From Cyanobacteriota bacterium (lineage in GTDB: Bacteria; Cyanobacteriota; Cyanobacteriia; PCC-6307; Cyanobiaceae), in assembly GCA_046052125.1 (NCBI GenBank), contig JBJOMY010000001.1:576001-640000 (forward strand): a stretch of 64,000 bases of DNA. The letters run 5' to 3'. A program made the position numbers and the translations under genes. The notes below the pieces were generated by a model. That model did not search any database. It saw only the letters and a program-made list of their open reading frames with translations, and had not been told where the DNA came from. This document shows, in pieces, positions 33,705 through 59,666 of this stretch. The first letter of the stretch is position 1, and the number at the start of each line of letters is the position of its first letter.

Positions 33705-33723
33705 CAGCGCCGTGTGTGTTTGG

Positions 33724-41234: not shown

Positions 41235-41273
41235 CCAGTCACATTTAGTCAGAGCCTCAGCCAGGCTCAGTCA
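41235..41273 (+). promoter_or_regulatory. Four phased direct repeats YYAGYCA (candidate response-regulator site)
   Basis: CCAGTCA, TTAGTCA, TCAGCCA and TCAGTCA at 10/12/10-bp spacing upstream of 41358. Confidence 0.35.
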
Positions 41274-41357
41274 CCTATCAACCAGAAGAGCGGATTTGGC
41301 TGGTTGCAGGTCAAGGAGCACTGCTGCTCTGACCTCCTCCCACACACCCAAGCAGTC

Positions 41358-41777
41358 ATGAACCCTTCTGCTTCCCGTTCTCACCGCCTGAGCTCTGCAG
41401 TGCGACTTGGCCTTGCTCTTGCAGCCACAGCTGCCGCCTTGATTCCACACGCGGCATCAGCGCGGCCCTGGCCGATCCCCCGGACCAGTTGGACTGGCAG
41501 CGTTCAGGACTATCCCGCACCCACAGCACCGCCACGGCCCTGGTGGAACCCTGCAGCGAACAGTGGCGATCAGGCCTACGCCACGCCACCGCTCACTCCC
41601 GAGCAACAGATCCAGCGCTGCAACACCGGTCGACTGATCGGCGGCCTCGGCGGTGGGGCGGTGGCCTACGCCATGTCGCGCGATGATGGCCGGGCCTGGG
41701 CGATTCCCCTTGGCGCACTGCTCGGCTCACAGGTGGGGTGCAACGCGGCGGCCGGCCGAGGTCCGCTGCCCTGGTGA
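41358..41777 (+). CDS. Glycine-zipper 2TM-type exported protein
   Basis: Signal peptide plus GRLIGGLGGGAVAYAMSR...WAIPLGALLGSQVGC. Confidence 0.7.
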   Translation: MNPSASRSHRLSSAVRLGLALAATAAALIPHAASARPWPIPRTSWTGSVQDYPAPTAPPRPWWNPAANSGDQAYATPPLTPEQQIQRCNTGRLIGGLGGGAVAYAMSRDDGRAWAIPLGALLGSQVGCNAAAGRGPLPW

Positions 41778-41784
41778 GGAGCTC

Positions 41785-42495
41785 TCAGGTCTGCTCTTGC
41801 CTTTCCGCCGTCCAGATCCAGCCCTCCTTCCTGGCTCGATCCAGATCCACAGGAGGGCGCGCACGGCCTCGGATGAAATCCGCCGCCGCTAGCACGCAGA
41901 CGAGGGCATCGATGGCATCGGCCGAGCTTGGAAGAGCGCCGTCGAGGGCGGTGAGATCGAGCAACGGCTCCAATCCCTCGATGGAGCCACCCTTGCCTTC
42001 TGAGCCATGGGCAAGTCGGGTGGCTGCCGGATACACCTCAATGGCAGCGGTGGGGTTCACATCAATTGGAGACCAGGCCAATGGAATTGCCATGCCCGTC
42101 GACGTCCTGAGCGTTTGCAGCAGATCGAGCGCTGCGACAGCTGTGCGCGAGATGAAGTTAGCCCCAACTTCCAAAGGCCGCTTACCGAAACGCTGGTAGA
42201 TGTCGTCGTCGCTCTGGCGTCGGAACAGGGCATGGGCTGTGGAACCCATCGCCGCTCCTGCCTGATGAGCGGCCAAGGCCTGCCCGATCGCGAGCGGCCA
42301 ACCCAGCGGAGCGTCAAGGGCCAGCAGCGCCGACTCGCCTGACTTCAACCAGCTGCTCACGATTGAGGCTGGCGACTCCTTGGGACTTGCAGTGCGGCAA
42401 GCCTTGATCCGCACGCGCTCGCCATTCAGTTCACCGAGCGCAAGCCCCACCTTGTTGGGCTGCGTGGCGCAATCGATGCCGATCAGGGCAACCAT
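41785..42495 (-). CDS. DUF429 family protein (predicted RNase H-like nuclease)
   Basis: IGID, LDAPLGWP, IEVYPAA and DAIDALVC motifs. The start could alternatively be 42534. Confidence 0.8.
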   Translation of the reverse strand: MVALIGIDCATQPNKVGLALGELNGERVRIKACRTASPKESPASIVSSWLKSGESALLALDAPLGWPLAIGQALAAHQAGAAMGSTAHALFRRQSDDDIYQRFGKRPLEVGANFISRTAVAALDLLQTLRTSTGMAIPLAWSPIDVNPTAAIEVYPAATRLAHGSEGKGGSIEGLEPLLDLTALDGALPSSADAIDALVCVLAAADFIRGRARPPVDLDRARKEGWIWTAERQEQT

Positions 42496-42512
42496 CGCCG
42501 CTGGACTTCTGC

Positions 42513-42713
42513 TCAGACTCTGGCCTGTATCCACTCCTGCAGCAGTTGCTGAGGGTCAACACCCTCCAGCAGTTCATCGGGCACCACCGCCACGCGCCGC
42601 AGATCCGGCATACGGCTGCGCACCTGCGCGATGGCGTGGTCAGGGTCCATCGCCCGCACCGGCTGAATGCTGCAGCGCTCCTGATCGCAGAAGAACACGG
42701 AAAACGCTGCCAT
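42513..42713 (-). CDS. Small hypothetical protein
   Basis: 66-aa ATG ORF directly upstream of DUF429 in the same orientation. Confidence 0.45.
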   Translation of the reverse strand: MAAFSVFFCDQERCSIQPVRAMDPDHAIAQVRSRMPDLRRVAVVPDELLEGVDPQQLLQEWIQARV

Positions 42714-43347
42714 GCCTGGGCTCTAGAAGTGAAATTGGGTGGGCTGCGGTGTGAGGAGTGCAGCCCAGTGCATCGCTGTGATGACGGCCAGGGGGTGATG
42801 ACCTCTCCTGACGCGTGAAGCGAGCACCGCTCGGTCATGGCCCAGGTGGCGGGTCAAGCGCAAGAGCGATCAGAGCGTCAGTGCTGCTCAATCGGGCTGA
42901 TCGGCTCGAGCACCTCCAACAGCGCCTGCAATTCCACCTGAGGATCACGCTGCAACAGAGCGACCACATCGGATTTGGGGCCTACTCGTGCCGCCCTTGC
43001 CCAGCTGATACACCGTGATCCAGGGGCTTCGCCGGTGCTCTCTCAGCCGGTAGCGGGCGCCGAAGGCGCGCAGCACCGCATTGCAGCGCTGCATGGGGCC
43101 CTAAAGGGTGGCCATGGGAAACGCATCTCTGTCGTGAGTGTTCCCACTGATCAGGCCCCAGAACCCCACTCAGTCTCAGCAAATGAGACGCGGTGGATTC
43201 CTTGGGACTTGTCCCAAGGAAATGACACAACTACGGTTTTCGGCAATCTCCCCGGACTCATTCCGGCCGGAGTGGAGTGCCTTCAGAAGCCCTGAAATCC
43301 CTTGCGCCGCAGGGTTAAACCCTTGCAGTCAAAACGATCTCAAGAAA

Positions 43348-43394
43348 TGGGTCGTCTGAGATTCGAACTCAGGACCAATCGGTTAAAAGCCAAT
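43348..43394 (-). mobile_element. att site: 3' fragment of tRNA-Lys(UUU), not an intact tRNA
   Basis: Minus strand reads ATTGG-CTTTTAA-CCGAT TGGTC CTGAG-TTCGAAT-CTCAG ACGACCCA: anticodon arm, T arm and 3' acceptor strand. There is no D arm or 5' acceptor strand upstream. Confidence 0.88.
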
Positions 43395-44130
43395 CTTGAC
43401 CGCTCGACAATACTTTCGATCACCGGATTGAGTCTCAAGAGGTACAGGGAAGGTACAAATGACAATCTCCGACATCATAAGACACCCCTTTGGGTTCCTC
43501 CTTGCGACACCGGGCCGGAATATGTTTTGTAACCCTGCTTCTGAGGCCGCCCCGCCAGGGCCATGCCACATGCCTATCCGAGCACCCAAGCGGGACAGAA
43601 GCCAGTTGCAGCAAGTGGTCAGCCGCAAGACCTAAGAACAAGCAGAGCCAGCAATGCCACCCCTAAGCATCAATCAGACCGAGCAGGAGTCAGAAGACTT
43701 ATTTAGCTATCTGACGGCGCTGAACTCGATAAGCGGCCCACTTCATGTCTCTTTGATTCTTCTGAGGCTGCTGATATGCGGCATTGATAGCGTCGCCACA
43801 GCCTGCCGTGCACCCACGGGCGACCTCACCCGGCCGCCCAGCCCTTGGCCATAACCGTGGGCGCAAATTACCGCCATTTGGAGAAAGAGAACTGTCATTG
43901 AGGCCAGGCAGCCACTCGAGCAACGCCAGACCCCCCAGGCCGCCCTGCAAGCCCTGGGCAACTGGCTTGGGGCCTTCCAGCCAGGGCGGGACGCCCAGGC
44001 TGAAAAGAGCTGGCAACCCGGCACGACGGCGGCCCTGCAGGAGGAGAGACCTGCCGCAGAGCCCCACGGCAATACAGCTCGTTGCGAAGGCGCTAGCTAC
44101 CGCCAACCGTTCGCGAAGTCAACAGGCATA

Positions 44131-44838
44131 ATGTTAGGGTTCCCAAATGGCAACCCAGTGCAGAGCCTCCAGCACAAGCTAGACGCTGCGCGGGTGCAAT
44201 TTGGCAAATTTTTGCGCAATTGGCGTCGTAGCAACGACTGGTCGGTGACCACCGCCCAGGACTGGGCCAAGGCCTGCCCTGCCCTGATCCCCTGGCCGTT
44301 GCGGGTGGCTGGAGGGCAGTGGGGGAACCTGGAGAACGGCAAGGTCCAGCAGCCCCAGCCCAGCACCTTCATTCAGCTGGGGGTGCTCAACGAGTGCCTG
44401 GCCCTCGAGGACCGTGGCCCGATCAAGGACAAGACCCTGCGCGACCGGGTGCAGCGGGCCCAGCCGGTGCGGCACCCCGACGGCCGGGTCTGGGGCGCAG
44501 AGGACTGGTTCGCCTGCTACATCGGCAAGCTCGAGGGTCCGGCTGAGCTCTGGCCCCGCCAGGACGACATCGACGCGGAGACCGAGACCAAGCGTCTGCG
44601 CACGCTGTTCGACCAGGCAGCAGAGAGCGCCGGCATGCGGCCGGTATCGGCGGCGATGCAGGTGCTGCGCAAGGCCGGTGATCTGCCGATGGAGCAGGTC
44701 GTGGCCATCGAGAACGCGCTTTTTGCCGGCGAGCGACTGCCAGCGGCCATCCTGCCCATCGCCCGCCAGGCACTGGAAGCCTGGGTGAAAGAAGCAGCCC
44801 CGGAACTGCTCTCCTCGGAAGGCGAGGCCTCCTCCTGA
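44131..44838 (+). CDS. Putative XRE/HTH-like regulator
   Basis: FGKFLRNWRRSNDWS...QWGNLENGKVQQPQPSTF resembles an XRE helix pattern. It is the first clear gene inside the element; the start may be GTG 44158. Confidence 0.6.
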   Translation: MLGFPNGNPVQSLQHKLDAARVQFGKFLRNWRRSNDWSVTTAQDWAKACPALIPWPLRVAGGQWGNLENGKVQQPQPSTFIQLGVLNECLALEDRGPIKDKTLRDRVQRAQPVRHPDGRVWGAEDWFACYIGKLEGPAELWPRQDDIDAETETKRLRTLFDQAAESAGMRPVSAAMQVLRKAGDLPMEQVVAIENALFAGERLPAAILPIARQALEAWVKEAAPELLSSEGEASS

Positions 44839-44978
44839 TCCAGCAGCAGCACGCGGAACCAGACCGGGGCCGTGGCCATCACTACAGACCAGCAATTATG
44901 CGTAGCCGGAATACCAGGCTTTAGCGTTCCCGAAACCGTTACAACAGGGGTAGCTTTGGCGTCGACCTGCAAGACCTT

Positions 44979-45323
44979 GTGGATCGCGCCGAACGCGGCA
45001 CACCTGATGCCGATTCCAGGCCTCCTGATGGCCTGGAGATCCGATACCCCCATCGCTCCGATCTGGAGCACTACACCCTGATCCAGGCTTCTTTCTCTGC
45101 AGCCCTTGCCACGTGGCAGCAGCGCTGGCCGGCGATCAACGCTGAATCCCTGGCTGCCCTGGCCGGCCACGGCATCGCCATCAGCTATCGCCAAAGCGCG
45201 TGCGGCGGCTACGTGGCCACCCTGCTGCACCGCGAAGGCGGTGGCATCGATTCGGGCCTGTGCCCGTCGCTGTTGGAGGCCAGACAGCTCGTCCTTGGCC
45301 ATGGCCGGGAGGAGGGGCCATGA
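44979..45323 (+). CDS. Hypothetical protein resembling the N-terminal part of ERF-family annealing proteins
   Basis: LAGHGIAISY...ATLLHREGGGIDS; ATGA-coupled to the exonuclease. The ERF C-terminal TYAxRY motif is absent. Confidence 0.45.
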   Translation: MDRAERGTPDADSRPPDGLEIRYPHRSDLEHYTLIQASFSAALATWQQRWPAINAESLAALAGHGIAISYRQSACGGYVATLLHREGGGIDSGLCPSLLEARQLVLGHGREEGP

Positions 45324-46168
45324 GCGACCTCTCCCTGGCGGACTACCACCGCCATCCCGCCTGGTCTCCCACCGCCTTGAAGGCAGCCGTCACGGGCACG
45401 ATGCGGGCCTGGTGGCAGCGCTTCGGGCCGGGGGCGCCGCCGTTCATCCCCTCGCCGGACATGGTCAAGGGGGATCTGGTCGATGCCCTGCTCACCCCGC
45501 CGTTCCGCATCGAGGAGCGCTTTGCGGCGTTCAAGACGATCGCCCGCAACACCAAGGCCGGTGCCGCCAACTGCGCCGAGGCCGAAGCAGCCGGGCTGAC
45601 GCCGGTGAGCCACGAGATGGTGGAGCAGGCCCAGCGCATCCGCGATGCCCTCCATGCCGATCCGGTGGTGGGGGAGGTGCTGGCGGCGCTGGATCCAGCA
45701 GCCAGCCAGCAGCCCCACTTCTGGGATGACGAAGCCGGCCGGCCCTGCCGCTGCCTGCCGGATGTGGTGACCAGCGACGGCCGCCTGTTCGACCTCAAGA
45801 AGACGCGAAGCGCCGTGCCCCGTCGCTTCTACTGGCAGGCGAAGGATCTGGCCTACGACCTGCAGATCGCCCATCTGGCCCTGGGGCACCAGCACCGCTG
45901 CGGCTCCGAGCCGGCCGAAACCGGGGTGATCGCCTTCGAGTGGCCGAGCGATCCAGCCGCGGCAATCGACTGCAGCCTGCTGATCTTCGACGGACAGGAC
46001 CTGCAGAGCGGGCTGGCGCGGCGGGAGGAAGCCTTCCAGCGGATCGCCGACTGCCAGGCCAGTGGCATCTGGCCGAGCCACGGCCGCCACGCCTTCCGCC
46101 CTGCGCCCTCCAGTTTCAGCCTTCCCGAACGCGAAGAACTTGATCAGGATTCCATTGACCTCTTCTGA
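45320..46168 (+). CDS. PD-(D/E)XK exonuclease, RecE/exonuclease VIII (DUF3799)-like
   Basis: YH.HPA.S.T.LK, M.KG..V.ALL, CRCLPD...DLKKT and YDLQ motifs. Confidence 0.82.
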   Translation: MSDLSLADYHRHPAWSPTALKAAVTGTMRAWWQRFGPGAPPFIPSPDMVKGDLVDALLTPPFRIEERFAAFKTIARNTKAGAANCAEAEAAGLTPVSHEMVEQAQRIRDALHADPVVGEVLAALDPAASQQPHFWDDEAGRPCRCLPDVVTSDGRLFDLKKTRSAVPRRFYWQAKDLAYDLQIAHLALGHQHRCGSEPAETGVIAFEWPSDPAAAIDCSLLIFDGQDLQSGLARREEAFQRIADCQASGIWPSHGRHAFRPAPSSFSLPEREELDQDSIDLF

Positions 46169-47415
46169 TGAGCGACCCCACCCTCACAACCGGCGCGCTT
46201 GCGCCCTCCACTTCCACCTCCTCAGCGCTGACGGTGCACGGGGATGCCCTGCAGGTGTTCAGCGGCATCGCCGCCTTTGACGCCGCCCAGCGCATGGCCA
46301 AGGCCCTGTGCTCCTCCACCCTCGTGCCCAAGGAGTACCAGGGGCAACAGGGGCTGGCGAACAGCCTGATCGCCCTGGAGATCGCCGGCCGCATGCGCCT
46401 CTCGCCCCTGGTGGTGATGCAGAACATGACGCCGATCCACGGGCGGCCCACCTGGAGCAGCAAGTTCCTGATCGCCACGGTGAATGCCAGCGGCCGCTTC
46501 TCGCCGCTGCGCTTCGTGTTCGACGACAAGGAGCAGCCCACCCGCTGCCACGCCGTGGCGACCGACAAGGCCACCGGCGAGGTGCTGGAGGGGGAGACGA
46601 TCACGCTCGAGCTGGCCCGCAAGGAGGGCTGGTGGAGCCGCAAGGACCGCCAGGGCAACGAGACCAGCAAGTGGCAGACGATGACCGGCCAGATGCTGCG
46701 CTACCGCGCCGCGGCCTGGTGGGCGAACGTCTACTGCCCGGAGATTGCCCTGGGGCTGATGACCCAGGAGGAGGCGCTGGACATCGAGCCGGTGTCGGTG
46801 CGGGAGGCGCCTGCGGCAACCCTGCCGACCAGCTCGCTTGATCAACCAACGTCAGGAGCGACAGATGCCAAGCAGGGCCCAGCAGTTCCTGCACTCCTGC
46901 ACTCTCGGGAAGGCGGTTCTCCTCTGCCGGGTCCCCTGAACCCTGAGGCAGATGCGCCGCTGATCCGCAGCGAACCCGCTGCAGGTGAAGCCGCTCTTCC
47001 TGCTGCGGTGGTGGAGGCCGAGATCGTCGACAGCGGCAACAACCAGCCGGAGCCTGCCCCCGCAAGCAAAGCAACCCCCGCAGCGACGCGCCGCTCGCGA
47101 AACCAGGGGACATCCGCAGCCGGCACGACCGCAGCCAACACGCCCGAAAGCCCGCCGTCTGAGCAAGATCCGGCGCCAGTCGGCTCCCAGGAGCCAGTGG
47201 AAGCATCCCCGGCACCAGCGGCAACCCCAGACGTCGACCCGGTGGAGGCCGGGCTGCAGCAGATCCCCCGCATCGCCACCCTGCTGGAGCTTGATGCCGC
47301 CTACGGGCGGGTGAACCAGCTGCTCGGCTCGGGGCGCATCACCGACAGCGCCGCCGAACGGTTGTGGAGTGCCGTCGCCCGGCGCCGCAAGGAGCTGGAG
47401 GGAGAGACCCCATGA
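46168..47415 (+). CDS. RecT-like ssDNA-annealing protein with Pro/Ala-rich tail
   Basis: SSTLVPKEYQG..ANSLIAL, MQNM..IHGRPTW and KWQTM..QMLRYRAA...YCPE motifs; coupled directly after the exonuclease. Confidence 0.72.
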   Translation: MSDPTLTTGALAPSTSTSSALTVHGDALQVFSGIAAFDAAQRMAKALCSSTLVPKEYQGQQGLANSLIALEIAGRMRLSPLVVMQNMTPIHGRPTWSSKFLIATVNASGRFSPLRFVFDDKEQPTRCHAVATDKATGEVLEGETITLELARKEGWWSRKDRQGNETSKWQTMTGQMLRYRAAAWWANVYCPEIALGLMTQEEALDIEPVSVREAPAATLPTSSLDQPTSGATDAKQGPAVPALLHSREGGSPLPGPLNPEADAPLIRSEPAAGEAALPAAVVEAEIVDSGNNQPEPAPASKATPAATRRSRNQGTSAAGTTAANTPESPPSEQDPAPVGSQEPVEASPAPAATPDVDPVEAGLQQIPRIATLLELDAAYGRVNQLLGSGRITDSAAERLWSAVARRRKELEGETP

Positions 47416-47798
47416 GCACCACCCTCTATCTGATCCAGGCCCAACACCTGCTGGAGCTGGCGCTGGATCAGGCCCGCCAGGAGCGCGACAGGGGCGTCTT
47501 TGAGATGGCCCGCGGGGAGCGCAGCCTCAAGCAGCTGCAGCGGCTGGTGGAGCGGGCCGCCTTGATTCGGGGCCTGTGGGAGCAGACCCGCAGCCTGATC
47601 GGCGCCAAGGACAATCCCCCGCCACCGACCGAGTTCCGGCCAGGGGAGCACTGGCTGAGCAAAGAAGGCCTCTATCGGGTCGAGCACTGCCCGCTGATCC
47701 CCAGCTGCGTGCAGCTGATCCCACTGGGCAGCAGCGGCCAGGAGCCGCTCTACCGCCACCCGAGCAACACCAACCGTTTTCAGAGGCTCTGGCCATGA
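47412..47798 (+). CDS. Hypothetical protein
   Basis: ATGA overlaps at both ends within the operon. Confidence 0.65.
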   Translation: MSTTLYLIQAQHLLELALDQARQERDRGVFEMARGERSLKQLQRLVERAALIRGLWEQTRSLIGAKDNPPPPTEFRPGEHWLSKEGLYRVEHCPLIPSCVQLIPLGSSGQEPLYRHPSNTNRFQRLWP

Positions 47799-48040
47799 GC
47801 GCACTGCCGGCACGACCGCGGCCCCTGCGCCAGCGAATCGGTAACCACAAAAAGACGATCACCATGAACAACGACACCTACGAGCGGGTGAACGCCTTCG
47901 CGCGGCGCCACAACATCACCTGGAGTGGGGCCCTGCATGAGCTGGTGCGCACCCATCCCCTGATCGGCTTGTCGTCACTGCTGGACGCCCAGAAGCGCAT
48001 CGATGCCATCAAGGGCGCCGCGCAGGAGGTGCAGGCATGA
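47795..48040 (+). CDS. Small ribbon-helix-helix-like protein
   Basis: KKTITMNNDTYERVNAFARRHNITWSGALHELV fits an RHH pattern; ATGA-coupled. Confidence 0.55.
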   Translation: MSALPARPRPLRQRIGNHKKTITMNNDTYERVNAFARRHNITWSGALHELVRTHPLIGLSSLLDAQKRIDAIKGAAQEVQA

Positions 48041-48543
48041 GCATCAACGTGGTCGTGCTGGTCGGCAACGCCGGCCGGGATCCGGAGCTGCGCTTCTTTG
48101 AGAGCGGGAGCTGCGTGTGTGAGTTCACGCTCGCCATCAACCGGCCACCACGGGATGGCCAGGAGCAGAACCCGCTGTGGGTGAACTGCAAGGCCTGGGG
48201 CAAGACCGCCCAGGTGGCCGGGGACTACGTCCGCAAGGGCAGCAAGGTGGCAGTGGTCGGCCGGCTGGAGAGCGAGCAGTGGACCGACAGAACCAGCGGT
48301 GAGGTGCGCAGCAAGACCCTGGTGGTGATCGACCGCCTGGAGCTCTGCGGCAGCCGCGGGGGCGGCGATGGCTTGGGCACTCCCGCTCCCTCCGGCGGGC
48401 CGCCCACCCGAGGGCATGGCTCAGCACCACCAGGTGCAACCGCGCAAGGTGCAGCACCACCGAGCGCAGGCGGCTGGGGGAATGACTGGAGCGCGCCGCC
48501 CGCCGGCGCCACACCCCTCAGCGACGAGGAGGTCCCGTTCTGA
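48037..48543 (+). CDS. ssb: Single-stranded DNA-binding protein
   Basis: INVVVLVGNAGRDPELR, KGSKVAVVGRL and an acidic C-terminal DEEVPF. Confidence 0.95.
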   Translation: MSINVVVLVGNAGRDPELRFFESGSCVCEFTLAINRPPRDGQEQNPLWVNCKAWGKTAQVAGDYVRKGSKVAVVGRLESEQWTDRTSGEVRSKTLVVIDRLELCGSRGGGDGLGTPAPSGGPPTRGHGSAPPGATAQGAAPPSAGGWGNDWSAPPAGATPLSDEEVPF

Positions 48544-48773
48544 TGGAACGCTCCTCCAGACGGCTGGACCTGCCGGCCTTTCCCCGCAGCCGCCCCCGCC
48601 ATCCCAAACTCCTCACCCTGAGCCGCCTGCGCCGCCTCAGGCGGTTGCAGTTGATCGTGCTGCTGCTCCAGCTCGGCTGCCTGGGTCTGTTGATCCGGGT
48701 GGTGGTGCGGGAGCCACTGCCGCTCTGCCGGCTGCAGCAGGCGATGCAAGTGATCCGAGGACCGATCCCCTGA
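48543..48773 (+). CDS. Small hypothetical membrane protein
   Basis: TGATG overlap with ssb; basic stretch plus one hydrophobic helix. Confidence 0.45.
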   Translation: MERSSRRLDLPAFPRSRPRHPKLLTLSRLRRLRRLQLIVLLLQLGCLGLLIRVVVREPLPLCRLQQAMQVIRGPIP

Positions 48774-48800
48774 CCGAAGGGCTCGCTGGGCGCGTGAGGA

Positions 48801-49973
48801 TCAGAGCGGTTCAGCGCCCTCGCCCAGGATCGCCAGGTAGGCGTCGTAGGCGAACAGGCGGTTGCGCCGACCGCCGGTGATCTCGCGGGCGATACCCAGT
48901 TCCACCAGGGTCTCGAGAACCTTGCCGGCAGTGGGGAAACTCAGTCCACTCAGCTCTTTGAGCTGCTTGGTGCTGGTGAGCGGTCGCTGCCGCAACGCCG
49001 CATAGCCCTGGCGCACGCTCGGCCCGGAGCGTCCGAGGCCGACCAGGCGCTCCTCATCGGTTCGGAACAGGGCGAGCAGCCGCTGGGCGGTGGCCACGGC
49101 GGCCGAGGCCGTGCTCTCGACACCCTCCAGGAAGAAGTCAATCCAGGCCTCCCAGTCGCCCTGCTGGCGGACACCATCGAGCAGCTCGTAGTAGCGGCTG
49201 CGGTGCTCCTTGAAGAACAGACTCAGGTAGAGCAGCGGCTGCTGGAGCACACCGGCCTCGATCAGCATCAGCACGATCAGCAGGCGGCCCAGGCGGCCGT
49301 TGCCATCGAGGAAGGGGTGGATCGTCTCGAACTGAACGTGGGCCAGGGCGGCACGCACCAGCACAGGCAGGGAGTGTTCACCGTGCTGGCCGCCGTGAAT
49401 GAAGTGCTCCAGCTGGCCCATGCAGGGCTCCACCTGAGCCGGTGGCGGCGGCACGAAACGGGCGTTGCCCGGCCTGGTGCCACCGATCCAGTTCTGGCTG
49501 CGCCGGAACTCACCCGGCAGGCGATCGGCACCGCGGCCCCGGGCCAGCAACCGGCCATGGATCTCGCGCAGCAGGCGAGAGGACAGGGGAAAGCCCTCGC
49601 TCAGCCGGGCCAGGCCATGCTCCAGCCCAGCGACGTAACTGGAGACCTCCACCACGTCATCGAAAGGCACGCCGGGAGCCTCCTCCAGTTCAAAGAGGAG
49701 CAGGTCGGAGAGCGAGGACTGGGTGCCTTCGATCTGGGAGGAGAGCAGGGCCTCGCGGCGCACGTAGGCGTAGAGGAACAGCTCCGGATCAGGGAGCAGG
49801 GCAGAGACCCCATCGAGGCGGCCGCAAGCCAGCAGCGCCCGATCGTGCAACGCCTGCAGCGGCCCCTCCAGCAACACCGGCGGATCGGGCGGCAATGGCG
49901 CTGGCACGAACGCCCGGACCGATTCCCCAGCGGTGCTGGTGATCTCGTAGCGACCGGTGCTGTCGCGGCGCAC
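48801..49973 (-). CDS. Fic family AMPylase (class II, with C-terminal HTH-like region)
   Basis: Catalytic HPFLDGNGRLGR motif and N-terminal inhibitory SSQIEG motif. Confidence 0.93.
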   Translation of the reverse strand: MRRDSTGRYEITSTAGESVRAFVPAPLPPDPPVLLEGPLQALHDRALLACGRLDGVSALLPDPELFLYAYVRREALLSSQIEGTQSSLSDLLLFELEEAPGVPFDDVVEVSSYVAGLEHGLARLSEGFPLSSRLLREIHGRLLARGRGADRLPGEFRRSQNWIGGTRPGNARFVPPPPAQVEPCMGQLEHFIHGGQHGEHSLPVLVRAALAHVQFETIHPFLDGNGRLGRLLIVLMLIEAGVLQQPLLYLSLFFKEHRSRYYELLDGVRQQGDWEAWIDFFLEGVESTASAAVATAQRLLALFRTDEERLVGLGRSGPSVRQGYAALRQRPLTSTKQLKELSGLSFPTAGKVLETLVELGIAREITGGRRNRLFAYDAYLAILGEGAEPL

Positions 49974-50188
49974 GAAACCTCCTTTGGGGCGAACCTTGAA
50001 TACGCGTCAAGCTTATTCAAGAGAGAGTCACCTGCGTTAAATAAAGGTGCTTTCGGGCGGATGAGCTCGCCCCCTGTTCCCGCAGGGAGATCAGCACGGG
50101 GAAGGCCAGCTGCAGACAACCGACTCCCTCTCGCCAGCAGCGCCCAGGGCGATGACAATCGCAGAAGGCCATCTGCGGGTGCCAGACG

Positions 50189-50575
50189 ATGAGTCCTCGC
50201 CTGATCATTTCCGACAACCGCGACGACCCCGGCAATCCGCTGGTGCTCGATGGCGAGGCCATTGACGCGGCAGCCAGCGACCCCGTGGCGATCGGCAAAC
50301 TGATGGTCGATCAGGTGTGGGCAGAAGGCACCGATCCCACAGGTGGGGGCCTCTACTACGAACGCAGCAGCAACCGGCACCGGCGCCTGCAGGCCTTCGA
50401 GACCGGCCACGAGGACTACATGACCGGCGGCTGGGTGCGAGTGCTGGCCACGGCAGAACAGGTGAGCAGGGAGCGGGCAGGAATGGAGCAGGCCGCCAGG
50501 CACGGGCTGGTCACGATCCACGGCAGCCACCGGGGCGTGCTGCTGGTCGAGTTTCTGGATGTGGCCTGGGCCTGA
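50189..50575 (+). CDS. Hypothetical protein
   Basis: 128-aa ATG ORF with protein-like composition. Confidence 0.6.
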   Translation: MSPRLIISDNRDDPGNPLVLDGEAIDAAASDPVAIGKLMVDQVWAEGTDPTGGGLYYERSSNRHRRLQAFETGHEDYMTGGWVRVLATAEQVSRERAGMEQAARHGLVTIHGSHRGVLLVEFLDVAWA

Positions 50576-51055
50576 CCGGCATACCGCAGGGCTCCGGTCG
50601 GCAGCGGCCGTCCTTCAGCGTGCCACGGCTGCGCCGTGGCGTGCATCGGCCAGCCGCCGCCGCCCTCCGCTCCGGGGCCGGTGTTGGGGTGGCAGGCAGG
50701 GCTGCTTTCCCGCGGCTGCGGTGGCCAGGCGCTTCAGTCCATTGGGCTGCCAGATCGCTGCCCAGAGATGTCTCGCGCGACTGCGCGGTCAGATGTTTTT
50801 TTAGAGCCCCATTCGTTGCCGATCCCTCGTCGCTCATTTGCAGCGTCTCAAGATGGCCAGCGCCTGCCCAGATCCACTGCGGCACAACGAAACTGGCCCG
50901 CCTTTAGTGCGTTTGCACTGGTAGAATAAGGGCTGCGCCAAAGGCCCTGAGCCCATCGCCGGCGGCAACCTCATCCCCTGGTCTCGCCATCACCGCTGCG
51001 TAGTTCAGAGCAGTTGTGATGCCCCGATCAGTTGTCATTTTCGGCAACTGAATCC

Positions 51056-51559
51056 ATGGATCTTTGTGTATTGCCACGGCCCATTGAGGCCCCCTCCCGT
51101 TCCCTGGTGATCGCCGCCGGTGGCGGCCGTGATCTGGCCTGGCCCCATCAGCGCATTGCCGCTGAGCTGCTCGCCCGCAGTGGCGGCCGGCTGGTGCATC
51201 TGGTGCTCCATGGCGGGGCCCGCGGGGCCGATGCCGCCATTGGCCGGGCTGCCCATCAGCTGGGCTGGTCCTCTGTGGTGATGCCAGCCCGATGGGAGCG
51301 CCACGGCCGGGCCGCCGGGCCGATTCGGAATCGCGAGCTGCTGGAGCAGGCCATTGCCCGAGCCGTCGCCCACACCTCCCCCAGCTGTCTCGCCTCGGTG
51401 CTGGTGGTGGCTTTCCCCGGCGGCCCTGGCACCGCCTCCCTGGTGCAGCAGGCCCGCCGTCTCGCTTCCCGATCCCCGGTGCCGATCGCCGTGGTGGAGG
51501 TCAGTCCATCGGCCGGGCTGTGGGCCGTTCCATCCCCAGAGCTTCCGCCTGGCGCCTGA
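51056..51559 (+). CDS. SLOG superfamily protein (DUF2493/YspA-like)
   Basis: GGGRD, HGGARGAD, GRAAGPIRN and AFPGGPGT motifs. Confidence 0.85.
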   Translation: MDLCVLPRPIEAPSRSLVIAAGGGRDLAWPHQRIAAELLARSGGRLVHLVLHGGARGADAAIGRAAHQLGWSSVVMPARWERHGRAAGPIRNRELLEQAIARAVAHTSPSCLASVLVVAFPGGPGTASLVQQARRLASRSPVPIAVVEVSPSAGLWAVPSPELPPGA

Positions 51560-51623
51560 GGCCGCCTGCCCCGGCCCCATCCATTGCATCCGCTTTCTCC
51601 GTTTCCCATCACCTCTCACCGTC

Positions 51624-52259
51624 ATGGCTGTTCTCACCGCAATCCCTGCCGCTCCAGTCGAGGCCCCTGCCCAAGCGGCAGCCCCCTCGGCATCCGGCCC
51701 CTCCTGCTCGATTCAGCGATCAGGCTCGCTCTGGCAGCTGGGCATCGAGGCCCAGGAGCTCACCACCGCCATCGGCCAGCTGGCCGAGCAGCTGGAAGCC
51801 GACGACCCCGAACAGCGCGCCTCAGCCCTGGCTGAGCTGGAGGCCGCCCTATTGGCAGAGGAGGGCAACAAAGCAGCTCTATCCGCCAAGGCCGATGCCA
51901 CCTGCTGGGTGATCGAGCACCTGCGCGGCCAGGCCGCCTACCGCCAGCAGCAGGCCAAGCGCCTCAGCGATCTGGCCCGCTCCGATGCCGGCCGGGCCGA
52001 TGCCCTGGAGGAGTCGCTGATCTTTGTCCTCACCCAGCTGCAGCCCAGCGCCACCCGTTTCTCGTTCCCCAATCACGAGCTCACCTCCCGCAAATCCTCC
52101 GCCGTGGTGATCGACGACGAGCAGGCCCTCGATGCCGAGTGGCTCGCCGTCACCACCACCACCAAGCCCGACAAGGCCGCCATCAAAGAGGCCCTCAAGG
52201 CCGGCCGCCAGATCACCGGCGCCCAGCTCCTCTCCCGCCGCTCCTGGCGCATCCACTGA
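51624..52259 (+). CDS. Siphovirus Gp157 family protein
   Basis: SLWQL, coiled coil, RKSSAVVIDDE...PDKAAIKEALKAGRQITGAQL. Confidence 0.85.
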   Translation: MAVLTAIPAAPVEAPAQAAAPSASGPSCSIQRSGSLWQLGIEAQELTTAIGQLAEQLEADDPEQRASALAELEAALLAEEGNKAALSAKADATCWVIEHLRGQAAYRQQQAKRLSDLARSDAGRADALEESLIFVLTQLQPSATRFSFPNHELTSRKSSAVVIDDEQALDAEWLAVTTTTKPDKAAIKEALKAGRQITGAQLLSRRSWRIH

Positions 52260-52361
52260 GGGAGGGGGGGCAGAGCCCTCTTTCACGTGGGCTTGCTGCA
52301 GGAGCGGGCCCACGTGATCGGCCCCGAACCACAACAGCAACCAGAAGCCAATCCCAGAGCC

Positions 52362-52574
52362 ATGGATCTTTCCAGCTACGCCAGCGCCACCGCCACCAAC
52401 AGCCCCAGCAGCACCAGGCCCAGGGGGCACATCTGGTCAACCCGGCTGTGCAGCTGGGTGGTGCCGATCACCCGCAAGGGCAGCCGCCGGCCCTCGCCAG
52501 ATCACATCTATTGCAGCGAACCGCCCTGCTGGTTGCTGATCGAGCCCCTCGATCCAGCCAGCACCGCCAGTTGA
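52362..52574 (+). CDS. Small hypothetical protein
   Basis: 70-aa ATG ORF between Gp157 and Rad52. Confidence 0.4.
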   Translation: MDLSSYASATATNSPSSTRPRGHIWSTRLCSWVVPITRKGSRRPSPDHIYCSEPPCWLLIEPLDPASTAS

Positions 52575-52628
52575 TCGCCTGCTGTCCATCCATTCCCGTT
52601 CTGACCGCACACCTCACCCCTCATCGCC

Positions 52629-53504
52629 ATGACCTGCACCTTCTCCACCGAGCAGATCACTGCCCTCTCCGCCCCCCTGGATCGCGCCAAGGTGCGCCAG
52701 CGGGAGCAGGGCCGCAGCCAGGTGAGCTACCTGGAGGGGTGGCAGGTGATCGCGGAAGCCAACCGCATCTTTGGCTTTGACGGCTGGCAGCGCGAAACCG
52801 TCGCCCTGCGCTGCGTCAACCAGAGCGAGCGCACCATCGGCCGGGACCAGCGCCCCGGCTGGGGAGTCACTTACACCGCCCGGGTGCGCATCACCGTGGG
52901 CGAGAGCACTGGTGCCCAGTTGATCCGTGAGGGCTGCGGCGCCGGCCACGGCATCGACACCGACCTGGGCCAGGCCCATGAATCCGCCCTCAAGGAAGCC
53001 GAAACCGACGCCATGAAGCGGGCGCTGATGACCTTTGGCAATCCCTTCGGCTTGGCGCTCTATGACAAGCAGCAGCGGGAGGTGACGGGGGCTGCTGGCG
53101 GGGGCGCTGCTCGTCCCGCCAACCAGCCAGCGGCCCGGCCCACGGCGTTGCGGGTGGTGCCCGCTACGTCGGCTCCGGCTCCGCACCGAGCCCCATCCAC
53201 GCAGGAGGGCCAGAGGGAGGCGACATCGAAAACTGAGCCACCCGCAGCTGCAACGGCTCAAGTTGCTCCAGCTGCCGCAGCACCCCAACCACAACCGGAT
53301 CCCGGCCTGAGCCCTCTCGATCCGGCCACCATCCGTCAGCTGCACGCCACCATCCGGGCCCTTCCCGCCCCGGTGCTGGAGGGTTTCAGCAAGGCCTTTC
53401 GCAAGCGCTTCCAGGTACCGGCTGACGCCCCCTCGATCGCCGATCGGATTTGCCAGCGCAGGCATCACGACTGGATCGAGACGTTTTTGGTGTCGCACCG
53501 CTAG
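52629..53504 (+). CDS. Rad52/Rad22 family (Sak-like) ssDNA-annealing protein
   Basis: SYLEGWQVIAEANRIFGFDGW and A.KEAETDAMKRALMTFGNPFGLALYDK motifs. Confidence 0.92.
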   Translation: MTCTFSTEQITALSAPLDRAKVRQREQGRSQVSYLEGWQVIAEANRIFGFDGWQRETVALRCVNQSERTIGRDQRPGWGVTYTARVRITVGESTGAQLIREGCGAGHGIDTDLGQAHESALKEAETDAMKRALMTFGNPFGLALYDKQQREVTGAAGGGAARPANQPAARPTALRVVPATSAPAPHRAPSTQEGQREATSKTEPPAAATAQVAPAAAAPQPQPDPGLSPLDPATIRQLHATIRALPAPVLEGFSKAFRKRFQVPADAPSIADRICQRRHHDWIETFLVSHR

Positions 53505-53599
53505 GTGCGCTCAGCAAAGCAGCACCAGTCGCCGCCAGAGGTCGCCGCTGCCCTCCACGGCTGAGCCGATCAGACAGGACACGACAGGGGCAACCGTGC

Positions 53600-53615
53600 T
53601 AGTACATGCGTACGC
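53600..53615. promoter_or_regulatory. Candidate cyanobacterial LexA box
   Basis: TAGTACATGCGTACGC contains AGTAC-N4-GTAC, 14 bp upstream of the 53630 start. Confidence 0.6.
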
Positions 53616-53629
53616 ATTGACCATGAGTC

Positions 53630-53914
53630 ATGGGCGCCCCTCTACCCCGACCCGCAGCACTGAATGCCCGGCTCGAAACTCCTGTCGAGGAGTGGCCGTA
53701 CCTCGATGAGGGCACCCTGCTGAAAACCCGCAGCCGCAAGGTCTGCATGACCTGCCACTGGTTTCGCCACCACGCCGGGGTGAACTGCATCCCGGTGCTC
53801 ACCTGCCAGCTGCATCAAGGCCTCATCGCCCATGGCGAGCACCTCACCAGCCGCTGCCAGGGTTGGACCGATGACATGACACGGCAGCAGGGCTGGGCGC
53901 CGGAGGTGGCCTAA
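53630..53914 (+). CDS. Small Cys/His-rich (putative metal-binding) protein
   Basis: CMTCHWFRHH...C....TCQLHQG...H....C. Confidence 0.7.
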   Translation: MGAPLPRPAALNARLETPVEEWPYLDEGTLLKTRSRKVCMTCHWFRHHAGVNCIPVLTCQLHQGLIAHGEHLTSRCQGWTDDMTRQQGWAPEVA

Positions 53915-53924
53915 GCAGGGCTCA

Positions 53925-54218
53925 ATGAACGTCGTCGACCGGCCCGCCCGCCCGCCGCTCTCGCCTCAGGAGGGCTGGATCAGTAATGGCCGGCAGGTGC
54001 TCCACTTCAAGCCGCTCCGCTACGACCGCTGGAGCCAGTCGCTGGAGCTGACCCTTGGGGAGGTGATGCCTGCCGGGGAGCCGCCGCTGCTGAAGAGCCG
54101 CAAGGAGATCACTCGCGTCGAGGCGATCAGGCTCTGGGCCGAGAAGCGCAAGGCTGGCTGGCAGACGTGCCCTCCTCAGTGGACACCACCCACTCCGCTG
54201 CGAGTCCTGCGGAGTTGA
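53925..54218 (+). CDS. DUF1651 family protein
   Basis: GWI...QVLHFKP, PPLLKSRK, AI.LW....GW..C.PQW pattern. Confidence 0.75.
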   Translation: MNVVDRPARPPLSPQEGWISNGRQVLHFKPLRYDRWSQSLELTLGEVMPAGEPPLLKSRKEITRVEAIRLWAEKRKAGWQTCPPQWTPPTPLRVLRS

Positions 54219-54265
54219 TGTGGCAGTCCTTCCGGTACACAGGTAACTGTTCTGTCTTCTCCAGG

Positions 54266-55348
54266 TCAGTGGCGATGGCGGTGGTGAGCATCACTCACAT
54301 GGGGATGGACATGCTCCTGTTCCTGATGGTGGTGCTGATGGGCATGCCAGTAGGCCCGATTCGCCGGCACGCCATCCAGTTCTGCCCCGCAGTGCGCATG
54401 GTCGTGATGGAGATCGGGATGGGCTGGGTCGTGGTGGTGCCGGTGGTTATGGCGTAGCGGTGCGTGGTGATGCCAATGGCTGTGCTGCTCACGCAGTAGT
54501 AGCACCACCCCAGCGGCCATCAAGAACGCTGCCACGCTGAGGGGTGGGGTCAGCTGCTCTCGGAGCACCAGCAGGGAAAACAGGGAGCCAACAAACGGAG
54601 CCGTGGAGAAGATCACGGCCTCGCGGGCAGCCCCCAGATCACGCAGAGCGAGTAGGTCGAGCCAGATGGAGATGCCATAGCCGAGGGCGCCGATTCCCAG
54701 CAGCCCGCTGATCACTGGAAGTGATGGGAACGATTCACCCAGTAGGAGAGCCAAGCCGAGCATTGGCAGGGAAGCTCCCACCGCTTTGAGGCTGGCGATC
54801 TGGATCGGATTGCGCAGGCTCAGCCGCTGGCTGAGGTTGTTATCGATGGCCCAGGCCAGGGTCGCCAGGGCGATCAGGCTGGCCCCAGGCCAAGAGGCAG
54901 CGCTGAGGGTGCCTCCGGAGAGCACCACTGCACCGGCCAGGGTGAGAGCAGCGGACAGCAGGCCGCGTTTGCCGAGATGCTCCCGCCCCACGGCCACGGC
55001 AATGGTGAGGGTGAACACGGCCTCCAGATTGAGCAGTAGGGAGCTGGATGCCGCCGGCAGACGGGCCAGCCCGAGCACCAACGCAAGAGGGCCCACCACA
55101 CCTCCCAGCAGCGTGAGGCTCACCAGTGCGGGCCAGTCCTGACGCTGCACCGGAGTTTCCGCCTGGGCTCGGCCCTGAATCAACCGCACTGCCAGCAACG
55201 CCAGACCGGCGCCCGCGTAGAGCAGCCCGGCGATGCTCAGAGCCGACCCGGAACCAGTCAGCGTGCTGATCAATGGCGCGCTGCAGCCAAAGAGCACGGC
55301 AGCGGTGAGACCTGCCAGTTGTCCCCGTCGAACAGATGCATGGGCCAT
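54266..55348 (-). CDS. EamA/DMT transporter with His-rich C-terminal tail
   Basis: About 10 hydrophobic helices with DNNL and FSTAPF, then the tail HSHWHHH...HVHPHVSDAHHRHRH. Confidence 0.88.
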   Translation of the reverse strand: MAHASVRRGQLAGLTAAVLFGCSAPLISTLTGSGSALSIAGLLYAGAGLALLAVRLIQGRAQAETPVQRQDWPALVSLTLLGGVVGPLALVLGLARLPAASSSLLLNLEAVFTLTIAVAVGREHLGKRGLLSAALTLAGAVVLSGGTLSAASWPGASLIALATLAWAIDNNLSQRLSLRNPIQIASLKAVGASLPMLGLALLLGESFPSLPVISGLLGIGALGYGISIWLDLLALRDLGAAREAVIFSTAPFVGSLFSLLVLREQLTPPLSVAAFLMAAGVVLLLREQHSHWHHHAPLRHNHRHHHDPAHPDLHHDHAHCGAELDGVPANRAYWHAHQHHHQEQEHVHPHVSDAHHRHRH

Positions 55349-55368
55349 GGCGGACCGTTCGTGCGTGC

Positions 55369-56534
55369 TCAGTTCCGGGATGCCGGCTGGGGACCAGCCA
55401 TGGCTTCGCGCAGCTTGGCCGTGTTGCCGCTCAGCAGCAGATCGCTACTGCGCAGGCCCTGCAGGATTTCGACTCGCTCAGCAGACTGCTGTCCCACGAC
55501 CACTGGCACCGCCTGCACCATCCCCCGCTGGTAACGGAACACCGTTGGCGTCCCATTCACCAGCTGCACGGCGTCGGCAGGCACCGACAAGCGTTGCTCG
55601 GAGGCCGGCACCTGCACAAAGGCGGTCACCGCCGTCCCAGCTGGGGGCAGGGGTGCATCGACGGTCTCGGCACGCACCACGTTGACCCGGTTGGCACTGC
55701 CGCTGTCTGGAGCCACGGCCAGCACGCGGGCGCGCAGCTCGCGAGATCCTGCCCGCACCCGCAGCAGCTGGCCGCTCGCCAGGTTGGCGGCCAGCACCGG
55801 CGACACCAGAAAGCGCAGTTCGCTGCCGCGAGCATCGCTCACCTGCGCCACCTCCTCACCGGCCTGGAGCACCACTCCCGGTGAGGCCTTCACGGCCGCG
55901 ATCCGGCCGCGGATCGGGCTGCGGATCAGCAGACGGCCCATGCCATCGGGCTGTCCCATCGCCGAGACCTTGGCCGTGGCAGCCCGGGCTTCAGCCGCTG
56001 CCGTCACGCTGGCGATCCGGCGACTCTCCAGCTCCTGCGCGGAGAGAGCACCCTGGCGGGCCATGGGCAGGGCCAGCCGGTATTGATAGGCCAGCGACTG
56101 GGCCGTGGCCCGGGCTGCATCCGCATCGGCACGCACCACGGCTGCATCGGGGCTCTGCACTGCAGCGATCGGCTCGCCGGCCTCGACGGCAGCACCCGGT
56201 GCCACCAGCACTCGCACGATCCGACCCGCCACCAGCATGCCGACGCTGGAACTCGCCCCTACCGATGCCTCCACAAAGCCGGAGATCGGCCGTTCGGTGC
56301 CGCTGCTCACCTCCGGGCGCACCGCGGCCAGGCCTGAGCGACGCAGTTGCTCGTCGCTGAACGCGAGGGCGTCGCTGCGCTCGGTGCTGGCTGTTTCGGC
56401 AGCTGACGGGGCTTTGCCTGGGCTGCCCTGGAGTCGCCCCAGCGCGATGCCCAGCAGCAGCGTTGCGCCGATCGCCACAGGAAGCAGCACCCGGGGCTGA
56501 CGCAGACGACCCGTGAGGCGGGGAAGGCTGAGGT

Positions 56535-56538
<4 letters not shown>
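55369..56538 (-). CDS. RND efflux periplasmic adaptor (MFP)
   Basis: N-terminal TM helix, GRIVRVLV.PG..V.AG and IRSPIRGRI lipoyl halves; ATGA-coupled to the RND pump. Confidence 0.88.

Positions 56539-59662
<3,124 letters not shown>

Positions 59663-59666
<4 letters not shown>

Follow-up and report, generated by a model that had tools for sequence, protein, structure and literature searches.

Two annealase systems in one probable tRNA-integrating element

Positions 44979-53504 of a 64,000-nt stretch of a Cyanobiaceae genome (GenBank assembly GCA_046052125.1, contig JBJOMY010000001.1, positions 576,001 to 640,000; this whole stretch is called the window below) encode a RecT-like and a Rad52-like annealase, together with an exonuclease, a single-stranded DNA-binding protein (SSB), a SLOG protein and Gp157. 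Why should two annealases of different families stand within 9 kb of each other? A first-pass annotation of the window had proposed either two fused elements or a dedicated recombination module. Our analysis supports another answer, in which the two sets of genes are neighbouring blocks of one tRNA-integrating, head-encoding element. Very probably, a 72.3-kb mobile element is integrated at a repeat of the tRNA-Lys 3' end (C1:619391-691727), positions 43392-64000 of the window are its leftmost 20.6 kb, and the flagged 9 kb are its early replication and recombination region, with both annealase systems in the gene order that is normal for the element family. Here and below, C1, C2, C3, C12 and so on are contigs, G-numbers are genomes or records (G000 being the genome studied), and L-numbers are homologous loci. 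The exonuclease-RecT-SSB operon is referred to as slot 1, and the SLOG-Gp157-Rad52 genes as slot 2 or the triad.

This conclusion is based on tRNA-Lys repeats, on collinearity with a prophage of G014, on the prophages of G014 and G067 that are bounded by attachment (att) sites, and on the circular viral record G069. The 3' end of tRNA-Lys was found in direct copies of 44 nt at C1:619348 and of 46 nt at C1:691727-691772, in the same orientation as the gene at C1:738248. The left copy lies within the window, and unk235, the opening gene of the early operon, starts 740 bp after it. The same fragment is present about 740 bp upstream of unk235 in L135, L137 and L141, and in none of these loci, nor in the window, does a tRNA fragment separate the two modules. 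At the other end, the repeat at 691727 adjoins an open reading frame (ORF) of 511 aa (C1:690020-691552) without a Pfam or PHROG match, which is homologous to ORFs beside tRNA-Lys (36% identical) and tRNA-Met and has a weaker match (3e-15) to the G067 integrase, itself a hit of phrog_1. The genes for the major head protein (C1:665345-666256), portal (DUF4055), scaffold and large terminase (C1:682005-683663) are located 25-44 kb past the end of the window, and the primase and helicase of the element also lie beyond it. The earlier statement that the window contains no capsid, terminase or conjugation genes was correct for the ORFs scanned in its 28.7-64 kb portion but misleading, since the head and terminase genes of the same element are found further along the contig.

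By tblastx, the C1:620-689 kb region is collinear with the G014 prophage once the latter is circularly permuted: the unk235-SSB block corresponds to G014 65-69 kb, SLOG-Rad52 to G014 5.7-8.5 kb, and C1:639.8-689.4 kb to G014 14.4-65.0 kb, and the cargo at window positions 54266-62415 has no counterpart there. An exact 45-bp repeat of the tRNA-Pro 3' end bounds the G014 prophage (C12:4164-71047), and an exact 48-bp repeat of the tRNA-Arg 3' end bounds that of G067 (C2:37265-110072). Both prophages carry integrase-SLOG-Gp157-Rad52 at one end and exonuclease-RecT-SSB at the other. The viral record G069 (49.9 kb, circular, 99-bp terminal repeat) encodes a large terminase, portal, scaffold, major head protein, two sigma factors, primase and helicase, and its early operon, integrase, tRNA fragment and SLOG-Gp157-Rad52 genes adjoin one another, with a 45-nt tRNA-Gly 3' fragment between the integrase and SLOG. 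Fragments of tRNA-Arg or tRNA-Pro occupy the equivalent place in L042, L044, L046 and L153, and a tRNA fragment before SLOG, as in these four loci and G069, is expected of an attP site or a tandem-element junction. The att site of the window element lies between VRR-NUC and unk235, and that of relatives between SSB and the integrase.

The idea of two fused elements arose because the RecT operon of G014 and G067 has no triad nearby and is preceded by terminase, primase-helicase, DEAD helicase and VRR-NUC nuclease genes; the triad is also multicopy in the genome studied, and the RecT operon single-copy. It was rejected in view of the adjacency in G069, the att-bounded prophages, and the collinearity with G014.

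Gene content of the flagged region

Genes were called with a codon-usage model trained on this genome, and families were assigned by scans of Pfam, PHROGs and NCBIfam with a threshold of E <= 0.01 or 0.001. The features are given below in window coordinates.

43348-43391, minus: 44-nt copy of the tRNA-Lys(ttt) 3' end, left attachment-site repeat; 100% identical over 44 nt to the gene at C1:738248
44131-44838, plus: unk235 (family F03), opening gene of the early operon, 235 aa; no Pfam, PHROG or NCBIfam match
44979-45323, plus: orf114, conserved small protein; no family match
45320-46168, plus: RecE-like PDDEXK 5'-3' exonuclease; DUF3799 3.2e-10, phrog_412 (exonuclease VIII) 9.1e-37, NF007259 3.2e-7
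46168-47415, plus: RecT/Redβ-family annealase; phrog_561 (RecT-like) 7.5e-57, Pfam RecT E 7e-5 (22.9 bits)
47412-47798, plus: unk129, optional operon gene; no family match
47795-48040, plus: 81-aa protein (family F07), like a ribbon-helix-helix (RHH) protein by eye only; no family match
48037-48543, plus: element-encoded SSB; PF00436 6e-29, TIGR00621 1e-32
48543-48773, plus: 76-aa ORF, doubtful gene, overlapping the SSB stop as TGATG; no Pfam or PHROG match
48801-49973, minus: Fic/DOC protein of 390 aa (Fic_N + Fic), cargo between the two modules; Fic_N 1.5e-22, Fic 5.8e-21, phrog_5978 2.6e-87
50189-50575, plus: unk128, which also precedes SLOG in G028, L044, L138 and L153; no Pfam or PHROG match
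51107-51559, plus: YAcAr-type SLOG protein; PF10686 8.5e-7, phrog_289 6.6e-12; start uncertain (51032 or 51107)
51624-52259, plus: Sipho_Gp157; PF05565 5e-22, phrog_253 2.3e-23
52287-52574, plus: 95-aa ORF between Gp157 and Rad52; low coding score
52629-53504, plus: Rad52/Rad22-family annealase; PF04098 7.2e-42
53630-53914, plus: Cys-rich 94-aa protein without a family, which with the DUF1651 gene opens the cargo region
53925-54218, plus: DUF1651 protein; DUF1651 3.8e-11
54266-62415, no strand given: lineage-specific cargo with an EamA transporter, HlyD/AcrB efflux pump and two-component system; Pfam matches

Searches with hidden Markov models thus found the exonuclease, RecT-like, SSB, SLOG, Gp157 and Rad52 genes as the first-pass annotation had named them, and the Fic/DOC gene between the two modules was missing from its list. 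The translational coupling that it had noted was likewise observed, with an ATGA or TGATG overlap at each of the six junctions between orf114 and the 76-aa ORF; orf114 and the exonuclease gene overlap as ATGA, and the exonuclease gene has 1 nt in common with the start codon of RecT.

The Fic gene, which is single-copy in this genome like the RecT operon, also adjoins SLOG in L042 and in the G067 prophage. ORFs similar to the 95-aa ORF were found between Gp157 and Rad52 in L040, L042, L135, L137 and G014 C38, and none was found in the paralogous triad copies B-E of this genome. The Cys-rich protein is present in seven copies and the DUF1651 protein in five, and the pair travels inside or beside these elements. 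The AcrB gene of the cargo occurs in 9 of the 45 genomes of the genus.

Ten genes were compared with their orthologs on G005 contigs (synonymous divergence, dS, 0.2-0.5). The ratios of nonsynonymous to synonymous substitution (dN/dS) ranged from 0.10 to 0.44, among them 0.135 for unk235, 0.246 for orf114, 0.44 for unk129, 0.105 for Fic and 0.185 for Rad52, and these values indicate that all ten evolve under purifying selection. A promoter and terminator scan of positions 43300-54400 was uninformative, with no promoter-like site (0.7 expected) and, exclusively on the minus strand, four terminator-like sites (4.7 expected).

Slot 1: exonuclease, RecT, SSB and small operon genes

The exonuclease reached 40.6 bits against DUF3799, for which the cut-off is 26 bits, and its NF007259 match was aligned to RecE residues 609-813, in the C-terminal domain. 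A PD...DLK pattern was seen by eye, without alignment to known catalytic residues.

Some homologs of the RecT-like protein at 82-88% identity have a precomputed PF03837 match, and close homologs are called 'recombinase RecT' by NCBI. We modelled its N-terminal domain with AlphaFold2 (AF2) from a 13-row alignment (mean predicted local distance difference test score, pLDDT, 68.8) and compared the model with 350,542 PDB chains by Foldseek. The best match was λ Redβ (7ujl; E 1.5e-3, probability 1.00, template modelling (TM) score 0.51 on the target), followed by RecT of a Listeria phage (7ub2; E 3.6e-2, probability 0.96). The N-terminal DNA-binding domain therefore models as a RecT/Redβ fold, in agreement with the first-pass assignment of the protein that starts at 46168. 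A single-sequence phmmer search of PDB sequences returned nothing relevant for RecT, and the 13-row profile gave only Redβ 7ujl, at E 0.87. Beyond this domain, the protein has a disordered linker of about 170 residues and an extra C-terminal helical region.

Conservation of the operon was followed across species-representative genomes, which provided 34 RecT loci. Of these, 32 include the exonuclease, 29 have unk235 directly upstream of orf114, 29 have orf114, and 15 have unk129. The 81-aa protein was found in 25, every time just before SSB, and has homologs in the ERF-type variants described below; its earlier designation as an RHH protein received no support, as no family matched. The SSB is a full-length match to TIGR00621, reaches 100.6 bits against PF00436, the OB-fold domain, and ends in an acidic C-terminal tip, DEEVPF, that is identical to the tip of the host SSB encoded on C2.

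The small protein orf114 had been described as an ERF-like fragment. Neither ERF (PF04404) nor any other family was matched in Pfam, PHROGs or NCBIfam, and there was no named Atlas family. It is weakly similar to the N-terminus of a 232-aa protein that occupies the same genomic position in relatives (BLASTP E 0.001 and 0.005; hhalign probability 1.2%, E 0.046), and the ERF-like designation is thus a weak, open lead and not a finding.

Slot 2: the SLOG-Gp157-Rad52 triad

The Rad52-like protein scored 143.3 bits against PF04098 (cut-off 20.3 bits), and its phmmer matches include yeast Rad52 (8g3g, 7.6e-14) and human RAD52 (1h2i/1kn0, 6e-10, residues 22-148). It consists of an N-terminal Rad52 domain, a variable linker and a conserved C-terminal domain of 65 aa. 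This C-terminal domain (65-70 aa, residues 217-287) is shared with the last 71 residues of the otherwise unrelated 232-aa slot-1 protein (L133:7260-7958; 45% identity, E 5e-15), which suggests that the two proteins may have a common docking partner.

Gp157 was matched at 79 bits (PF05565 cut-off 28.6 bits), and phrog_253, which it also matches, is annotated by PHROGs as 'Mu Gam-like end protection'. Its AF2 model (pLDDT 78.7) is a long helical hairpin with a small beta domain. Comparison of the model with PDB by Foldseek and with 48,161 chains by VIA-align gave generic coiled coils and no Ku or Gam match, which does not exclude such a fold, and a Gp157 profile found nothing relevant among PDB sequences. 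Prediction of a Rad52-Gp157 complex gave a score of 0.00 against a mark of 0.32, a result that says nothing either way. The SLOG protein passed its PF10686 cut-off marginally (29.1 versus 28.2 bits) and had no phmmer match in PDB. Candidate roles for it are a DprA-like single-strand binder or a nucleotide/NAD-processing protein. YAcAr SLOG domains are predicted to process NAD+ or nucleotides in conflict systems (PMC7824862). Genes of the gp157 type are regular upstream neighbours of erf and sak4 in Firmicutes phages, in a position otherwise held by Gam-like genes (Steczkiewicz et al. 2021, PMC8093625), and, according to PMC6157547, phage resistance was the first effect ascribed to Gp157.

The triad is present in five copies in this 2.64-Mb genome (in the window and at C1:~160 kb, C1:~712 kb, C3:~28 kb and C3:~111 kb), and SLOG precedes Gp157 in all five. 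The five Rad52 copies have no internal stops, and an alignment of them showed a nearly invariant core. Three of the copies belong to a second type of element (L026-L031; C1:~160-174 kb, C1:~712-732 kb and C3:~28-40 kb), whose proteins are 75-97% identical and in which the triad stands behind genes for a sigma factor, an unknown 355-aa protein, a DnaB-like helicase and a DnaG-like primase; further upstream are a phrog_284 exonuclease and a small sigma factor. Variable cargo starts directly after Rad52 in all five copies; among its genes are those of toxin-antitoxin pairs, restriction systems and transporters, as well as genes for an Abi protein and a Thoeris TIR protein.

With five Rad52-like genes, one RecT-like, one ERF-like candidate and one Gp2.5-like gene, the annealase-gene load of this genome is unusually high. 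Within the genus, relatives of Rad52 were seen in 22 of 37 genomes (G000 among them), frequently as more than one copy, and RecT in 6 of 45; the 24 genomes from other families of the class have no Rad52 relative.

Co-occurrence of the two annealases among relatives

The usual order at RecT loci is terminase, primase, DEAD helicase, VRR-NUC, unk235, orf114, exonuclease, RecT, sometimes unk129, the small protein, and SSB; among the 34 loci, terminase was seen in 14, and primase, helicase and VRR-NUC in 19 each. When the triad was sought within 10 kb downstream of RecT, it was found in five loci (L135, L137, L138, L141 and L153), so that the two modules, whose linkage elsewhere had been named in the first-pass annotation as a decisive point, are indeed adjacent in other genomes. 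The identities of L141 (63-65%) and L153 (49%) are low enough for each to be regarded as a lineage of its own. In G014, G067 and G075, Rad52 shares contig and strand with RecT and lies 56-62 kb away, at the other end of the element, and in G074, G076, G077 and G078 the contig ends before the expected place of Rad52. RecT and Rad52 were thus found in one element in all nine assessable cases, the window included; there are close kin among the nine, which are therefore not nine independent events.

Viral sequences provided a second view of the family. In IMG/VR, 197 stretches encode Rad52 relatives, and 80 loci were kept, the seven closest of which carry SLOG-Gp157-Rad52. G069 is one of these records. 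In three of the seven (L041, L044 and L046), the triad lies 4-6 kb downstream of a DEAD helicase or VRR-NUC gene, a gene like unk235, a gene for a 232-256-aa protein, a small F07-like gene and further genes. None of the five viral records with the triad encodes RecT, and all five encode the 232-aa ERF-like candidate. G069 has a Gp2.5-like SSB/annealing protein near the 232-aa protein, and the same pair is found in a related remnant on C3 of the genome studied. A profile of the 232-aa candidate gave nothing relevant against PDB. In other viral contigs, the Rad52 gene itself fills the early-operon slot, after VRR-NUC and before SSB.

Two annealases therefore look like the rule in this element family. 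The earlier premise that a phage as a rule has one class of annealase fails here, given RecT with Rad52 in nine of nine cases and the ERF-like candidate with Rad52 in five of five. As judged from these gene orders, slot 1 is exchangeable, being occupied by exonuclease, RecT and SSB or by the ERF-like candidate and a Gp2.5-like SSB, and slot 2 is constant.

Sequences around the element and on contig C3

Just left of the att fragment, at positions 42881-43115 of the window (minus strand), are remains of the N-terminus of an integrase, with 55 aa that are 75% identical to the integrase next to tRNA-Lys, and of the C-terminus of a DnaG primase. Positions 41226-42983 share 84% DNA identity with the DUF429 block that the element at C1:~712 kb carries. 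These sequences represent a third element, now decayed, of a tandem array at tRNA-Lys. Their inverted DUF429/primase-fragment block had also been considered as an inversion within a single element, which the tRNA-Lys fragment at 43348-43391 ruled out. On C3, copies of the tRNA-Pro 3' end lie at 14548 and 47859, with the gene at 113228 and integrases at C3:14742 and C3:48154. The C3:14548-113301 region points to a tandem array of about 99 kb that contains two Rad52 triads and a terminase-type remnant of the ERF-like/Gp2.5-like variant.

Two further observations concern the lower-GC island to the left of the element (GC content 0.55-0.60, compared with 0.645 for the genome). Positions 1-28578 (minus strand) form a single open frame of more than 9526 aa that runs off the start of the window, and positions 31263-38436 encode two lysozyme-inhibitor-type proteins (MliC and PliI) and an autotransporter of 1032 aa.

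Weighing of the alternative explanations

Several results weigh against the assignment of both annealase systems to one head-encoding element. No tail gene was recognised by PHROGs in G069 or in C1:638-692 kb, where gene calls are gapped in low-GC stretches, and CheckV rated G069 as 65% complete; 'phage' may be the wrong name, and the element may be a satellite or defective. Downstream sequence of 6 kb or more is available for 16 RecT loci (a number obtained by reading of lengths); four of them have the triad, and it was found in the flank of none of the 12 others, the far end of which was checked in three. No RecT gene was found within 10 kb of any of the 80 viral Rad52 loci, and a Rad52 gene was absent from all six viral RecT loci. 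The RecT-like protein falls just below the Pfam RecT (PF03837) cut-off of 24 bits, the quality of its model is middling, and both of its Foldseek E-values are weak. The link of the 232-aa protein to ERF comes from language-model similarity alone (27 of 30 hits to ERF clusters, score 0.90). Finally, freshwater metatranscriptome contigs at least 95% alike cover 30, 23, 22 and 17 of 30 bins in four libraries, but these are assembled contigs for which DNA carry-over is possible and depths sum over relatives, and they cannot show transcription.

A chance juxtaposition, in which two unrelated elements (RecET-SSB and SLOG-Gp157-Rad52) or the ends of tandem prophages came to lie side by side and then decayed, appears highly improbable to us. 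It would be consistent with the occurrence of the triad without the RecT operon at four other sites of the genome, with the single-copy RecT operon, with the remnant of a different element (integrase N-terminal and DnaG fragments) just left of the locus, and with the tRNA 3' fragment between the early operon and the triad in L153, L044, L046, L041 and L042, as at a tandem junction or attP. However, no such fragment lies between the modules in the window, L135, L137 or L141, all 70 kb are collinear with one att-bounded prophage of G014, the modules are likewise adjacent in a circular viral record, and all compared genes are under purifying selection. This selection, with dN/dS well below 1 since the split from G005, would also be expected of a domesticated module, that is, of a dead element from which the host keeps one or both annealase sets for RecA-independent recombination and repair, shuffling islands and capturing cargo. 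The variable cargo directly downstream of Rad52 in five of five copies, the five Rad52 copies in a genome of 2.64 Mb, and the several RAD52 family proteins in islands of Synechococcus RS9917 (Sullivan et al. 2009, PMC2784084) fit such a role. Nevertheless, every copy examined belongs to an element in which an integrase, tRNA att repeats or replication genes are present, the genes are patchily distributed (RecT in 6/45 and Rad52 in 22/37 genomes of the genus; Rad52 in 0/24 of other families), and the element at this locus has the look of a complete one, including a putative integrase, head genes and a terminase. We thus hold domestication to be very improbable.

One of the two sets may also serve not recombination as such but conflict with other elements or defences, for instance as a back-up when one annealase is attacked, or with SLOG and Gp157 blocking host nucleases or nucleotide signalling. 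The link of Gp157 to phage resistance (PMC6157547), the predicted NAD+/nucleotide processing by YAcAr SLOG proteins (PMC7824862), the targeting of phage recombinases by defence systems and satellites (PMC11846896) and the many defence genes in these elements agree with it. Against it, the Rad52 core is nearly invariant, including residues common with yeast and human Rad52, which would fit a working annealase, and the regular place of gp157-type genes upstream of erf and sak4 in Firmicutes phages (PMC8093625) points to a recombination accessory. We consider that a role in conflict has very little chance of being the explanation, and retain the reading of a single tRNA-integrating element with two annealase systems.

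Comparison with known systems

Slot 1 resembles RecET of the E. coli Rac prophage and λ Red, in which a gene for a PDDEXK 5'-3' exonuclease also stands directly before, and overlaps, a RecT/Redβ annealase gene in the early operon of a temperate element. Unlike these systems, the operon described here includes an SSB with the host tip and three or four conserved small genes (unk235, orf114, unk129 and that of the 81-aa protein), its RecT has the linker and the extra C-terminal region, and no Gam homolog was recognised. The slot-2 annealase has direct sequence homology to phage Rad52-like annealases and to the N-terminal domain of eukaryotic Rad52, and is a temperate-element gene. Among the phage proteins are Sak of lactococcal phage ul36 and Sak of staphylococcal phage 80α, the latter encountered in the PDB structure comparison as 8pq8. 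Here, in contrast to phage Sak, SLOG and Gp157 are fixed upstream, the 65-aa C-terminal domain is common with the ERF-like candidate, and a second annealase is present in the same element.

Sipho_Gp157 directly upstream of an annealase recalls the Firmicutes modules in which gp157, Gam, DUF2483 or DUF1351 genes precede erf-ssb or sak4 (PMC8093625), but the annealase is of the Rad52/22 type here, SLOG stands before Gp157, no SSB follows Rad52, and a cyanobacterium is the host. For the picocyanobacterium Synechococcus RS9917, several Rad52-family genes in islands near tRNA and prophage-like genes were described and read as a response to attack by insertion sequence (IS) elements (Sullivan et al. 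2009, PMC2784084), whereas each copy here lies in a defined integrative element with att repeats and a fixed SLOG-Gp157 pair, and one element type has a second annealase. Compared by description only, capsid-forming phage-inducible chromosomal islands (PICIs) are similar in having an integrase, primase or helicase, terminase, portal, scaffold and major head protein with no recognisable tail; the elements described here differ in their size (50-73 kb), their large defence and transporter cargo, and their two annealase systems.

The RecET-like pair, the phage Rad52-like annealase, the gp157-annealase pairing and the several RAD52 genes in Synechococcus islands were thus known already. The fixed SLOG-Gp157-Rad52 triad, its sharing by two element types, the regular, exchangeable second annealase system and the C-terminal domain common to two different annealases are new. 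No description of these features was found in the literature searched, which included searches for the triad and for dual annealases in picocyanobacterial elements, and the consulted part of Lopes et al. 2010 (PMC2896510) contains nothing on two recombinases per genome.

Proposed mode of action and significance

The anatomy of the locus is established here, and from it we infer each biochemical step by analogy. The exonuclease would resect 5' strands at double-strand ends, as in RecET and λ Red, and RecT would coat the 3' tail and anneal it to a complementary single strand, either at a replication fork or between two ends. The element SSB, through its host-type DEEVPF tip, could connect these events to host replication proteins. 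The Rad52-type ring protein would anneal single strands in the manner of phage Sak proteins, and Gp157 would occupy the place of the Gam-like accessory genes of other phages. The likely use of these activities would be recombination-dependent replication, repair and circularisation of the element, together with exchange with other resident elements.

Candidate reasons for keeping two systems are a division of labour, a back-up against defences that target recombinases, which defence systems and satellites have been described to do (PMC11846896), and exchange with resident relatives (cited for this, De Paepe et al. 2014, PMC3945230). The cargo found after Rad52 in five copies is circumstantial in this respect: it fits cargo exchange, without proof. 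A further, speculative and rather unlikely extension is that SLOG-Gp157-Rad52 is a portable three-gene recombination system, which tRNA-integrating elements of two or more kinds have in common in freshwater picocyanobacteria and which works alongside a second annealase that can be exchanged. The shared C-terminal domain would then dock both annealases on one partner, and the triad at the cargo border would let elements swap or acquire cargo among at least five resident copies. If this were true, the elements would be self-remodelling islands of defence and transport.

Phage annealases are the basis of recombineering, and, to our knowledge, they are usually treated as one per phage. The use of these genes as a recombineering kit for cyanobacteria, suggested in the first-pass annotation, is plausible: intact, selected and host-adapted parts, namely exonuclease, RecT and SSB on the one hand and a separate Rad52-based set on the other, could be tried in picocyanobacteria. 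Their placement in elements explains the older observation of several RAD52-family genes in Synechococcus islands (PMC2784084). Freshwater picocyanobacteria very probably harbour a conserved family of integrative, head-encoding elements in which one annealase slot is swappable and the other constant, with different annealase families side by side, and these elements are well suited, as found in nature, to the question of why one element should require two annealases of different families.

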